From positions 420,001-452,000 of the forward strand of contig CP095464.1 in assembly GCA_021294815.2 (NCBI GenBank): DNA of 32,000 nucleotides, read 5' to 3'. This DNA is from Verrucomicrobiota bacterium. Lineage in GTDB: Bacteria; Verrucomicrobiota; Verrucomicrobiia; Opitutales; LL51. A program made the translations under genes and the position numbers. The notes under the pieces were generated by a model. The model did not search any database. It was given only the letters and a program-made list of their open reading frames with translations, and was not told the origin of the DNA. Numbering within the stretch: position 1 is the first letter of the stretch; each line of letters opens with the position of its first letter. Below are positions 881 to 18,456 of the stretch, piece by piece.

Positions 881-1837
881 TTACTGATCGATATCCCCGG
901 CAATTTCTTGCAAACGCCCAATCGAATCATTCAGATCCCACTTATTGCTGTCACTTTGAGTTTTTTCGAGTCCTTGTAATTTTTCAACAACCTCCTGAAT
1001 CCAGCTTTTGATCGCATGGTTACATGCTTTCTCGTCCTTCAAAAGCCCAGAAAGATCGAACCCAACCTGTGAACCATTTACCGTCAATGCCTCATCTGAA
1101 GCTAATATCGTACAAAAATTATCAACAACCCCGGTTAAGTGCTGCAGTTGTTTGCTGCTAGAGGCCTTCTTTATGGCAAAATTTATATCCTTGTACTTAT
1201 TGGGAAGCGAGCTAAACATCCCTTCGGTATCGAAAACTCGCCGCACACAATCTTTAAATGCCAGAAAGGATTCGAGAGAACTACATGAATCATGGACACC
1301 CTGATCCCGTAGACCCAAACGCATCAATAAAGAAACCAAAGTTGCGTCACAGGAGCGTACAGTCTCCGCAACCTTGGCTAGCCTATTTTTCCATTCCGTC
1401 GTGAGTTCCAGAATCTTTTCATTGCATTGCTCGAACTGACTCTGCAGTTTTGCCCGTTCTTCCGCGATTTCCTGTTGGTTTTGCTGGGCCTCATGTTCCC
1501 ACTGGTTTCGTTTTCTCTTGGCTACTAGGTAAAGCGATTTGGAGAATTTTAGCTTCCGACCTATGCGCGCCTTTTTGAATCCACCCGCCTGGAGGTGCTC
1601 ATTAACCAGAGTGCGCTTTTGGGCGTCGTCAATGCGATACTGGCTGGCCCATTGTTGAACCTTTTTAGTATTCTTGAGGAGTTTCTTTATCTCTTTCGCA
1701 TCCCAAGAATCGAAATTCTGATACTTACTGGCATATACCTCTAACGCCAGCAGCTTATTGAGCTCTTCATCGCTAATGGTATAGTTCCCAACAGGGATAT
1801 CGGAAGTTTCAATGTAATGATCAATGCTAATGTTCAT
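881..1837 (-). CDS. Coiled-coil family protein CC-1 (hypothetical, divergent N-terminus)
   Basis: 318-aa ORF whose ATG sits 6 nt after a -10 hexamer. It keeps the family box GRKLKFSKSLY and has a K/E/Q-rich heptad-like body. No signal peptide or TM segment. Confidence 0.8.
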   Translation of the reverse strand: MNISIDHYIETSDIPVGNYTISDEELNKLLALEVYASKYQNFDSWDAKEIKKLLKNTKKVQQWASQYRIDDAQKRTLVNEHLQAGGFKKARIGRKLKFSKSLYLVAKRKRNQWEHEAQQNQQEIAEERAKLQSQFEQCNEKILELTTEWKNRLAKVAETVRSCDATLVSLLMRLGLRDQGVHDSCSSLESFLAFKDCVRRVFDTEGMFSSLPNKYKDINFAIKKASSSKQLQHLTGVVDNFCTILASDEALTVNGSQVGFDLSGLLKDEKACNHAIKSWIQEVVEKLQGLEKTQSDSNKWDLNDSIGRLQEIAGDIDQ

Positions 1838-1843
1838 GGAGTA

Positions 1844-1871
1844 AGCATAACATTTTTACATATTTTGTAAA
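1844..1871 (-). promoter_or_regulatory. Sigma-70-type promoter predicting a leaderless CC-1 mRNA
   Basis: Minus strand reads TTTACA-16 nt-TATGCT-TACTCC-ATG. The -10 ends 6 nt before the start codon. Confidence 0.6.
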
Positions 1872-1966
1872 TAAATTATTTAAACTCTAGCGGCATTTAT
1901 TGATAAAATTTTCAACAACTTACATACAGAAATTGCTCTTGCTGGGGACTGCCAGGCCCCCAATAA

Positions 1967-2773
1967 TCACTTCTCCTGGGCTTCCTTTGCCTCCTTAATT
2001 GCCAAATCGAGAGCCTGCAATTTTGTCCTTAAGAGCATTTCTTCTGTATTTTTAGATGTATCTAATCCGCCCCAGTACTTCGACTGAACCTGCCCATCGG
2101 CGTCGTAAAACTCTTTAAACTGCTTCTCCACTTCCTGTTGAAGTTTTTGCACGTTATCGGCGTTGGATTGGACTGCCTCTTTAAAATTCTCGATAGACTC
2201 CTTCAATTTTGCACTCGCAATACCCGCTTTTACAAACTTTCCCGCCATCGCGGTGTAATATTTTTCAAACAATTGAGTAACTTCACCGTGGTGTGCTTCC
2301 AGCTCCCGCCTCTTTTGCCGGTCTTTTATGCCTTTGATGGCCTCGGAATAAGAGTCCAACTGAGACTTGAAGTCGCTCCGATTGGTCTCATAGGGCGCCT
2401 TGTAGGCATCTACTTTTTCCTGATAGGGACTGATCTTCGCCTGATACTCCTCAGCTTTTGCCCTGTATGGTGCCATTTTTTGCTCGAGATTCTGATATTC
2501 GATTTTCTGCTGGTGCTTTGTGCTCTTCGCCTTGTGATACTGCTGTGCAGAAAACTTCAGGGCCTTCTTTCCTTCGTCTACATCAAATCCCTGAATATTG
2601 GCGTATTTTATGATCTTGGCTTTGGTCGCCCTGTAGTCTTCCGAGTTCGTTAAGCTCCCCCAGACTTGCTTCACAAAGTTACCAAAAATTGTTCCACCCT
2701 GCCGCTCTGTGCGGAACTTCGCCGCTTCCCATGCAGTAATGCCGTAGCTAGATCCATTAATATCGATTTTCAT
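1967..2773 (-). CDS. Coiled-coil family protein CC-2 (hypothetical)
   Basis: N-terminus MKIDINGSSYGITAWEAAKF and box GKKALKFSAQQY match the paralogs. The rest is K/E/Q-rich coiled-coil-like sequence. Confidence 0.85.
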   Translation of the reverse strand: MKIDINGSSYGITAWEAAKFRTERQGGTIFGNFVKQVWGSLTNSEDYRATKAKIIKYANIQGFDVDEGKKALKFSAQQYHKAKSTKHQQKIEYQNLEQKMAPYRAKAEEYQAKISPYQEKVDAYKAPYETNRSDFKSQLDSYSEAIKGIKDRQKRRELEAHHGEVTQLFEKYYTAMAGKFVKAGIASAKLKESIENFKEAVQSNADNVQKLQQEVEKQFKEFYDADGQVQSKYWGGLDTSKNTEEMLLRTKLQALDLAIKEAKEAQEK

Positions 2774-2794
2774 AGTAAATTCCCCAATTGAAAG

Positions 2795-17053: not shown

Positions 17054-17059
17054 AAGTTG

Positions 17060-17087
17060 AGTATAAATTTACAGAGAGATTTGTAAA
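17060..17087 (-). promoter_or_regulatory. Sigma-70-type promoter predicting a leaderless CC-11 mRNA
   Basis: Minus strand reads TTTACA-16 nt-TATACT-CAACTT-ATG. The -35 ends a T14 tract preceded by CCTGTAAAGCG. Confidence 0.6.
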
Positions 17088-17098
17088 AAAAAAAAAAA
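17085..17098 (-). repeat. Homopolymer tract (T14 on coding strand) fused to the -35
   Basis: Plus-strand A14 run. Confidence 0.9.
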
Positions 17099-17241
17099 CG
17101 CTTTACAGGTAAATTTTATAATTTCTCGCTGGTAAACTCAAACGTCGAGCCGAAAATTAAACACATCACCCCAACGGCAAAGGTCTGATATTCGCATATG
17201 AGCCAAATCTAACCAACTCTCTCAAACAAAAGCTAGCTTGT

Positions 17242-18456
17242 TTACATCTTAATCGACGATGTAACCTGCAATACACTTGTAATGACACTTAATGCGAGAA
17301 TCGCGACGCCGACAAAGGCACAGCCCATGGCGATGGCCGTGACCGCGCTCGACATCATGTTGAGGTCGTTGATGAGGTCTCCGTGGTATTTTTTATAGAC
17401 ACTTTTTAGAGAACCAGCAAGATCTCCCGTGTTTTCTCCCATCGAAAGAAGATCAAGCGCAAGGTCGGGCATCACGCCGTAGGTCTCAAACGCTTGCGTC
17501 ATTGAGGCCCCGTTCATCACCGCTTCCTTCGCTTCGATAAAACGTTGCCGAAAATAGCGGTTCGCAGATGCATTCTTCGCCAGCTCCATCGCCTCTGTCG
17601 TGTTGATCCCACTACCTAAAAGCGTCGCCAGTAGATTCGAGGTCTGACAGTAAAAGTTCTCTTTGATAATCATGCCTACAATCGGTATCCGTAATACCCA
17701 GTGGTCCAGATTGTAGCGCCCCTTTGGCGTGTTCCGATAGGCTAACGTTACGCCAATAATACCCAGAATCGATAGGAGAATCGCCCACCAGTATTGCCCC
17801 GCTACCTTCGATGCGTCAATGAGGTATTTCGTCATCTGCGGTAGGTCGCCTCCAAGCGATTTGAGCATGCTCTCAAGCTTCGGCATGATGAAAATAAGAA
17901 AGACTAACCCAACAACAATTCCAACCGTACAGACCGTCGCCGGATATGCCATCCCGGAAATGAACTTCTTCTTCAACTGCTCCTTCGTCTCTAGAAATTC
18001 AATCAAATTCGTAATCACAGAAATGAGATTGCCCGTCTTTTCTCCCGCTTCTACCATGCAAACCGTGTTCTCGTTGAAAATGTCTGGAAAGTTCCGCATC
18101 GCTTGCGCAATCGTCTTCCCTTCACATACGTCTTTGTGAATCGTTTCCGCTAAAACCTGCTCCTGCGGGTCCTTTAAACGCTTCCGCATCGTCCGTATCG
18201 CATCCCCAATCGGAAGCCCTCCGCCGTGTAATTGTAAAAACTTTTGAAGAAAACTGAGCGCAATCTTACTCTTGCTCTTCTGAAAAAGCTGAAACTTAAA
18301 CGAGCTCTTCGTAGTCCCGGTGTCTTCCGCAATCGCGGAAACCCGTATGCCACGGCCTTGTAGGCTGAGAATCGCTGACTTTCGATCCGCTGCCTCGACC
18401 GTCCCTGACGTTGTACGCCCTGTCGCCCCGTCCGTTCCTTTGTAGGAAAATTTCAC
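17242..18456 (-). CDS. gspF: Type II secretion / type IV pilus platform protein, GspF/PilC family
   Basis: 404 aa with the duplicated T2SS-F architecture: a soluble N-domain, then a TM segment (PATVCTVGIVVGLVFLIFIMP), a second cytoplasmic domain and two further TM segments. Typical motifs include LLGSGINTTEAMELA. GTG start. GspF and PilC cannot be told apart from sequence alone. Confidence 0.85.
   Translation of the reverse strand: MKFSYKGTDGATGRTTSGTVEAADRKSAILSLQGRGIRVSAIAEDTGTTKSSFKFQLFQKSKSKIALSFLQKFLQLHGGGLPIGDAIRTMRKRLKDPQEQVLAETIHKDVCEGKTIAQAMRNFPDIFNENTVCMVEAGEKTGNLISVITNLIEFLETKEQLKKKFISGMAYPATVCTVGIVVGLVFLIFIMPKLESMLKSLGGDLPQMTKYLIDASKVAGQYWWAILLSILGIIGVTLAYRNTPKGRYNLDHWVLRIPIVGMIIKENFYCQTSNLLATLLGSGINTTEAMELAKNASANRYFRQRFIEAKEAVMNGASMTQAFETYGVMPDLALDLLSMGENTGDLAGSLKSVYKKYHGDLINDLNMMSSAVTAIAMGCAFVGVAILALSVITSVLQVTSSIKM

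Follow-up and report, generated by a model that had tools for sequence, protein, structure and literature searches.

How should a long block of paralogous genes be read that lies directly downstream of a lone gene for a secretion or pilus platform protein in a small bacterial genome? We addressed this question for a Verrucomicrobiota bacterium (Opitutales, LL51; GenBank assembly GCA_021294815.2), by analysing a window of 32,000 nucleotides (nt), positions 420,001 to 452,000 of contig CP095464.1; all coordinates below are those of the window. Open reading frame (ORF) calls demonstrated that eleven co-oriented genes, named CC1 to CC11 here, fill positions 881-17053 of the minus strand, nine of them intact and two frameshifted, with a gspF/PilC-family gene upstream. 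This is the arrangement that an earlier, sequence-only reading of the same DNA had described, and the strings it gave for the N-terminal motif, the KLKFS box and the GPFA motif were all found to be present. The intact proteins measure 241-757 amino acids (aa), where about 240-760 aa had been estimated, and the block is indeed richer in A/T: its G+C content is 0.41-0.46, compared with 0.48-0.53 in the housekeeping genes. The lower value reflects partly amino-acid composition (G+C at second codon positions, 0.29-0.39) and partly a lower G+C at third codon positions. A search of the intergenic gaps for remnants of additional CC genes found none, and Tandem Repeats Finder returned from the array only two short repeats of 18 nt, each in two copies. 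As detailed below, the CC genes form a lineage-restricted, modular and rapidly reshuffled family with a conserved promoter.

A significant N-terminal domain of about 95 aa, referred to here as the cap, is common to 10 of the 11 members, with CC11 as the exception. When each member was left out in turn from a hidden Markov model (HMM) of the first ~95 residues, the scores of CC1-CC6, CC8 and CC9 were 16-37 bits, and none of 500 shuffles exceeded 14 bits; CC1 reached 16.2 bits against a maximum of 10.6 for its own shuffles, and CC9 reached 29.5 bits on its reconstructed cap. Profile-profile comparison with hhalign joined CC7 (E 3.4e-5) and the cap group of CC10 (E 2.6e-4) to the core family, so that the kinship seen by eye in the sequence-only reading held for these members, but not for the CC11 cap (E 0.06, not significant); CC11 is tied to the family only by its GPFA motif, a C-terminal SDDQNY box and the family promoter. 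A second-round profile recovered two members from other assemblies on which it had not been trained (E 4e-9 and 3e-8). Pairwise BLASTP similarities are weak, the best being that of CC3 and CC4 over their full length (E 1.7e-15), and most cap-cap pairs fall between 1e-3 and 1e-8; the body of CC10 resembles CC4 and CC3 (E 1.6e-8 and 2e-7, respectively).

Every one of the 11 caps is basic (isoelectric point, pI, 9.4-10.1), and the bodies have pI values of 4.0-8.1. In an AlphaFold2 (AF2) model of the CC3 cap (predicted local distance difference test score, pLDDT, 79; predicted template modelling score, pTM, 0.65), the predicted topology comprises a β-hairpin (residues 2-12), three helices, a second β-hairpin at the KLKFS box and then a helix that enters the body. 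An independent AF2 run on full-length CC2 (pLDDT 72.7) gave an identical cap topology; these structure models were built on shallow alignments of 10-11 sequences. Neither the cap nor the family had a match in Pfam, NCBIfam, PADLOC, PHROGs, the PDB sequences, PDB structures searched with Foldseek, or BFVD, and comparison of the cap with characterised domains, AF2 and Foldseek included, thus led to no known domain family. Matches to WXG100, Perilipin, Mu Gam and tape-measure proteins were below threshold, covered helical segments only and were set aside as compositional. The idea of an unrecognised family with a conserved cap and hypervariable bodies is therefore supported by significant HMM and hhalign results together with the lack of any library match: the CC family and its cap fold are without known relatives, and the family is a real one that is not placeable in any known family.

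The distribution of the family is narrow. Run exhaustively with HMMER against 1.84 billion representative proteins, the cap profile gave 13 true matches, which came only from this genome and four related assemblies: eight were genes of the window, one lay at another locus of the source genome and four belonged to the related assemblies. The off-array paralog (P0012, LW808_000575) is encoded at a distant locus, the four array members whose locus tags were seen falling within LW808_002045-002070. A word-indexed protein search with cap profiles found only the CC9 fragment of the window and one partial protein of a sister strain. Among the relatives' loci used below, L001 is that of a sister strain (labelled Opitutales), L002 that of a Puniceicoccales metagenome-assembled genome (MAG), and L006 that of a more distant relative.

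Expression of most of these genes appears to be governed by a shared promoter. The sequence TTTACA-N16-TAYRCT, ending 6 nt before the start codon, precedes CC1, CC4, CC5, CC6, CC7, CC8 and CC11, and in the longer form TTTACAAA-N14-TAYRCT-N6-start it is found at these seven window members and at 10 genes of related assemblies. The fixed pattern matched seven times in the window, all at CC starts, against 0 matches expected; the identical geometry recurs at the 10 family genes in L001, L006, L007 and L008, the proteins being less than 30% identical. When the promoter was used as a DNA probe in JGI metagenome contigs, 102 stretches matched and none of them encoded a family member, so these were taken as chance matches. 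By established promoter geometry, a -10 box lying 6 nt from the AUG is expected to make transcription begin with the A of the start codon or right beside it. Because the -10 box of the family promoter ends 6 nt before the start codon, the CC mRNAs are probably leaderless. No Shine-Dalgarno sequence occurs at the seven promoter-bearing CC genes, and the housekeeping genes in the window are also mostly without one, in agreement with the reported rarity of Shine-Dalgarno use in some Verrucomicrobia (PMC10783764). A promoter-like site was also seen at gspF (18464-18491, minus strand; TTGCCA-16-(TG)TACAAT), ending 7 nt before its GTG start, and given this layout, leaderless or near-leaderless expression may be common in the genome and not special to the CC family. 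CC2 and CC3 lack promoters of their own and are probably co-transcribed with CC4. The start of CC6 is set at the GTG at 7894 because the promoter at 7901-7928 places it there, and its product is a 241-aa entry of the protein library (P0003).

A poly-T run is fused to the -35 box and ranges from 7 to 19 nt across the family promoters. Its length differs between orthologous promoters: 14 versus 16 nt for CC11, 15 versus 19 nt for CC8, and 7 versus 9 nt for CC6. Such runs were seen at about 17082-17095, 12012-12026, 9414-9424 and 7923-7929, as well as in the L001 and L007 promoters, and a conserved motif, AAAATTTNCCTGTAARGCG, precedes the poly-T run.

The array also preserves traces of how it grew. 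Three pseudo-copies of the gspF 3' end are present within it (Table 1), each a truncated stretch of the last 80-170 nt of gspF in which the stop codon is kept. In the alignment, the copy closest to CC8 extends across a duplicate of the gspF-CC11 spacer and, by way of the CC8 promoter, as far as the start of CC8; the unit that was duplicated thus combined a gspF 3' end with a promoter and a CC gene. Two of the scars retain short minus-strand ORFs of 46 aa (15623-15763) and 66 aa (13199-13399), in which the final GspF transmembrane helix is encoded and SSIKM precedes the stop codon. These fragments are duplication scars and not functional evidence; they provide an unusually legible record of tandem-array growth. 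Comparison with relatives showed how quickly the array changes. L001 shares 94% nt identity with the window over 4.9 kb of flank, and its GspF is 98.8% identical, yet the order and content of its array differ: downstream of gspF come a CC6-like gene, a CC8-like gene, a gspF scar and then a different member. The L001 ortholog of CC8 has a body with 68% aa identity and a cap that is different and canonical. In L009, the CC3 ortholog is 633 aa long versus 461 aa (+172), an internal coiled-coil segment having been duplicated. The ratio of nonsynonymous to synonymous substitution rates (dN/dS) is 0.58 for CC8, 0.30 for CC2, 0.29 for CC3 and 0.36 for CC11, compared with 0.04 for gspF (versus L001), 0.11 for sufC and 0.06 for sufB. 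Within CC3, aa identity is 86% for the cap but only 58% for the body, so the cap is clearly the better conserved part. Three features are unusual here: the promoter is conserved more strongly than the proteins, its geometry is that of leaderless genes, and the duplication scars can still be read. The first of these makes the array a clean natural case for the study of leaderless expression, in a phylum with scarce Shine-Dalgarno use (PMC10783764).

Beyond the cap, the bodies are either long helical hairpins or coiled coils of 100-650 aa, or acidic proline-rich tails. A hydrophobic periodicity of 3.4-3.6 residues is clear in CC1-CC4, CC8 and CC10, and the AF2 model of the CC2 body contains two antiparallel helices of ~70 residues and a third helix. 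CC6, CC11 and the distal part of CC5 are acidic, proline-rich, non-periodic and non-helical, so the coiled-coil label given to all members in the sequence-only reading suits the former six but not CC6, CC11 or the CC5 tail. A C-terminal box, S[PIL]SD[ED]QNY[DS][QR][QR][TG]F, is common to CC5, CC6 and CC11 (at about 5915-6100, 7169-7400 and 15932-16150), and the DNA of CC5 and CC6 at this box is 86% identical over 65 nt (repeat D6). No transmembrane segment or signal peptide was detected in any member (highest Kyte-Doolittle mean over 19 residues, 1.39), as had been expected from inspection. Neither a Sec/Tat signal nor a prepilin-like N-terminus was found in the CC proteins; their N-termini are polar and predicted to form a β-hairpin, residues 2-12 being conserved and predicted to be folded (pLDDT ~78-86). 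CC6 carries DPFDPF and PLPPLP motifs. These were considered as eukaryote-like motifs, and since only CC6 and the CC11 ortholog have them, they were judged too sparse to serve as evidence.

The host is probably a host-associated bacterium with a reduced genome. A host-associated lifestyle had already been suggested from the DNA, and the idea gains support from the Opitutales and Puniceicoccales labels of the related MAGs and from the literature on reduced-genome Opitutales, which treats them as putative protist endosymbionts (PMC11257099). Members of the reduced-genome groups UBA9783 and LL51 are gut-associated and without amino-acid, nucleotide and lipid biosynthesis (PMC12306168), and whether such gut Opitutales are scavengers or symbionts is debated (PMC12306168 versus PMC11257099). 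Reduced-genome gut Opitutales are known from MAGs only. If the 878-kb contig (878,461 bp, the only one on record) is near-complete, the 17-kb array amounts to ~2% of the genome, and genes that are kept and multiplied in such reduced genomes usually matter for lifestyle.

We tentatively favour, with somewhat less than even confidence, the reading that the CC family is a diversifying repertoire that serves the interface to a host or partner cell. Each protein is modular: its constant part, the basic α/β N-domain of ~95 aa, would in this reading be a shared 'handle', and its variable part, a helical hairpin or coiled coil (100-650 aa) or an acidic proline-rich tail, the 'business end'. For most genes, transcription would start at an individual copy of the strong, conserved promoter. 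The array would change by tandem duplication of the unit made up of gspF 3' end, promoter and CC gene, by recombination that swaps caps and bodies among paralogs, by internal duplication within coiled coils, and by pseudogenisation. The proteins may then act at the interface as exported effectors or displayed fibrils, with the shared N-domain used by all of them for recognition (including export recognition), docking or anchoring, and with the variable part as an interacting surface that diversifies under conflict or host adaptation; the position beside gspF would be a historical accident of the site of the first copy. Of the three functions that the sequence-only reading had offered, the effector-like or displayed ones are favoured over a housekeeping scaffold by the fast turnover and raised dN/dS, and the part of its argument that leaned on gspF found no support. 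With its strain variability and common N-module, the family offers concrete candidates for host or partner interaction and, in the N-module, possibly a signal for export or anchoring that is new.

Paralog families that have expanded and evolve fast are familiar from host-dependent bacteria. The Inc proteins of chlamydiae and the LegC3-type effectors of Legionella are, like the CC proteins, numerous, fast-evolving, coiled-coil-rich paralogs of host-dependent bacteria, restricted to a narrow lineage and without a recognisable enzymatic domain. Unlike Inc proteins, however, no CC member has a bilobed hydrophobic segment (~40-60 residues), and there is no sequence or fold match to LegC3, which appeared only at a Foldseek E of 9.6. 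The constant part also differs, being a folded basic N-terminal domain in the CC family, and no secretion system is known for the CC host.

Several points weigh against an interface repertoire. The CC proteins have no known export route and no signal peptide, and residues 2-12 are modelled as a folded hairpin, unlike the disordered signal of type III secretion substrates. All dN/dS values are below 1, so relaxed constraint is not separable from diversifying selection. The layout of basic head, helical rod and acidic tail would fit a filament protein of the cytoplasm as well. Membership of the MAG in a putative protist-endosymbiont family is inferred from database labels and the small genome and not from phylogeny, and it is from promoter geometry that the mRNAs are judged to be probably leaderless.

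Among the alternatives, we consider it unlikely that the CC proteins are cytoplasmic coiled-coil or intermediate-filament-like scaffolds that shape the cell or order its interior. The helical periodicity of six members, the long helices in the AF2 models, the lack of an export signal and the combination of a basic head with an acidic body all fit such a role, as does the finding that the only database similarities are generic coiled-coil matches (SMC, Rad50, JetC, LmuB, SpiroCoCo) far below cut-offs. Crescentin, FilP, Ccrp and SpiroCoCo proteins indeed share with the CC proteins a head-rod-tail layout with a helical rod. The scores remain low: 15.6 bits against the Pfam Filament model (cut-off 40), and at best 25.9 bits (CC10) and 18.9 bits (CC5) against the NCBIfam model SpiroCoCo_C (cut-off 125). 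The resemblance to SMC, Rad50, JetC and LmuB is to their coiled-coil arms, the best match being that of CC10 to SMC_prok_B (E 1e-10, 40 bits). It is confined to arm regions, at 14-40 bits versus cut-offs of 300-1000, which the scores miss by a factor of 10-20; the CC proteins lack an ATPase head and a hinge, a Pfam scan revealed neither AAA nor ABC domains, and nothing beyond composition and heptad pattern is reflected in the SMC-type similarity. The coiled-coil proteins known from bacterial cytoskeletons tend to be conserved and to occur in single copy. The CC family, by contrast with crescentin and its like, is multicopy, strain-variable and partly rod-less (three members lack a rod), and has a conserved structured cap that those proteins lack; gene content differs between strains with 94% identical flanks, dN/dS is 5-10 times that of housekeeping genes, caps are swapped among paralogs, and two of the 11 members are pseudogenes.

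A second alternative, which we regard as quite unlikely, would turn the array into a contingency locus: an exported or displayed repertoire that switches by changes in poly-T length and is reshuffled through the repeats formed by promoters, caps and gspF scars. The poly-T run could be a hypermutable expression switch. The vlp genes of Mycoplasma hyorhinis and the fim genes of Bordetella are, like the CC genes, tandem paralogs with near-identical promoters beside a long homopolymer run; the variation in run length among CC copies and strains, and a conserved N-terminal part followed by a variable remainder, extend the likeness. On the other hand, the CC products are not lipoproteins or pilins and have no signal peptide, the CC T-run lies upstream of the -35 box and not in the spacer, and switching of the CC genes is a proposal only. 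If such a locus existed, a verrucomicrobial symbiont living with gut protists or animals would possess a system of antigenic or host-range variation based on a protein fold and an export signal that are both new. Verrucomicrobial epixenosomes have an extrusive organelle, and in a bolder version, drawn by analogy, the CC proteins might build an extrusive or filamentous organelle.

The CC proteins might instead be substrates or accessories of a type II secretion system (T2SS) or type IV pilus machine that includes the adjacent GspF/PilC protein, which is the linkage that the sequence-only reading had drawn. We find this improbable. The array is co-oriented with gspF and begins 188 nt downstream of it, the arrays in L001 and L007 also follow gspF or a gspF 3' end, and gspF itself is under strong purifying selection (dN/dS 0.04); in addition, type IV pilus and competence genes were reported in UBA9783 genomes (PMC12306168). 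From its sequence, however, the gene is not assignable to a T2SS as against a type IV pilus or competence machinery, its scores being below cut-offs for TIGR02120 GspF (252 versus 424 bits) and for PilC models (167-180 versus 700 bits), and gspF is the only secretion or pilus gene found in the 32-kb window. Besides this window, just two closely related assemblies, those of L001 and L007, showed an array adjacent to gspF. In L002, the closest gspF outside the lineage (8986-10194; 61% identity) has no CC array downstream, no gspF sequence occurs in the 10.8-kb L006 array, and the paralog LW808_000575 lies at a distant locus of the source genome; homologs thus follow gspF or its 3' end in L001 and L007 but not in the L006 array. 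The CC proteins also have no Sec/Tat signal or prepilin-like N-terminus, most CC genes have their own promoters, and the gspF fragments in the array are truncated scars. The L002 gspF stands alone, with no T2SS or pilus genes nearby; next to it, downstream, come a small ORF, a regulator of the HTH_3 type and a LysR-like gene. A lone gspF is therefore older than the array. A functional link between the CC genes and gspF is therefore not supported, and their position looks coincidental.

We also give only a slim chance to the proposal that the basic N-domain is a winged-helix-like binder of nucleic acids, acting in the nucleoid or, if the proteins are exported, in the nucleus of the host. The high pI of every cap agrees with it, the predicted three helices and β-hairpin 'wing' fit, and the top Foldseek matches are mostly winged-helix domains (MORF WH, LmrR, LysR-type regulators, ORC/Cdc6, MukF). 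These matches are nevertheless insignificant (best E 0.8, template modelling score no higher than 0.34), and no helix-turn-helix family was matched consistently across 20 caps. A superficially similar 118-aa ORF beside the L002 gspF (starting MKIMNINGEFF), considered as a cap ancestor, is unrelated (hhalign E 0.28, no Pfam support). Finally, it is highly improbable that the array is repeated DNA in decay, for the most part without function, within a genome that is degenerating, because two pseudogenes, three gene-fragment scars, low G+C and raised dN/dS are outweighed by nine intact ORFs, dN/dS values of 0.3-0.6 that are still below 1, a cap better conserved than the body, and a promoter geometry kept exactly across paralogs and strains.

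Table 1. Positions of the CC genes, the neighbouring platform gene, its partial copies and associated signals in the window
Feature	Position	Strand	Description
Terminator-like G+C-rich hairpin + T-run	817-843	-	Closes array after CC1
CC1	881-1837	-	318 aa, intact; longest cap, helical body; promoter 1844-1871
CC2	1967-2773	-	268 aa, intact; without own promoter
CC3	2834-4219	-	461 aa, intact; without own promoter
CC4	4260-5720	-	486 aa, intact; promoter 5727-5754
CC5	5915-7108	-	397 aa, intact; cap, short coiled coil and acidic tail with SPDEQNYDQQTF box; promoter 7115-7142
CC6	7169-7894 (longest ORF to 7915)	-	241 aa from GTG at 7894; cap and acidic proline-rich tail with SDEQNYDQQTF box; promoter 7901-7928
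CC7	8470-9385	-	One frameshift in G-run, where ORFs 9053-9385 and 8470-9111 overlap; promoter 9392-9419
CC8	9710-11983	-	757 aa, intact; longest helical body; promoter 11990-12017
gspF 3'-end pseudo-copy	12168-12304	-	tblastn 100% over 27 aa; repeat D1
CC9	~12310-12987	-	Pseudogene, several frameshifts; cap readable across two frames
gspF 3'-end pseudo-copy	13188-13366	-	tblastn 73% over 59 aa; repeat D1
CC10	13467-15278	-	603 aa, intact; divergent cap; without canonical family promoter
gspF 3'-end pseudo-copy	15624-15775	-	tblastn 88% over 50 aa; D1 reference copy, 89% nt identity to genuine gspF 3' end
CC11	15932-17053	-	373 aa, intact; promoter 17060-17087
Family promoter example (CC11), TTTACA-N16-TATACT	17060-17087	-	6 nt before start; consensus scan
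gspF/PilC-family platform gene	17242-18456	-	404 aa, inner-membrane protein; T2SSF PF00482 twice, E 5e-40

CC7 is either a pseudogene or an intact gene with a sequencing frameshift. The frameshift (about 9053-9111) falls in the G-run within KQGA/KAGG codons, and it could reflect a sequencing error, recent pseudogenisation or slipped-strand switching.

The remaining genes of the window are ruvC, sufC, sufB, three MgtE_N-repeat genes, dnaK, groES, groEL and dnaB. There are no tRNA genes in the window, and no integrase or transposase domains were seen among the flanking genes scanned, so nothing points to a classical mobile island. Beyond gspF and sufCB, a second paralogous family was noted, made up of three co-oriented minus-strand genes (20670-22127, 22503-23891 and 24064-24864) with pairwise BLASTP E values of 2e-7 to 5e-6. 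Two of the three match MgtE_N repeats (E 4e-34 and 1e-9), and at the N-terminus of two of the three a hydrophobic stretch resembles, on visual inspection only, a signal or anchor; the first gene has a G+C content of 0.40 and a raised dN/dS of 0.34 versus L001. At the other end of the array, the RuvC domain begins at residue 57 of the longest ruvC ORF (162-806, minus strand), and the real ruvC start is probably internal to this ORF; the hairpin that closes the array lies just upstream of the TTG start of that ORF at 806.

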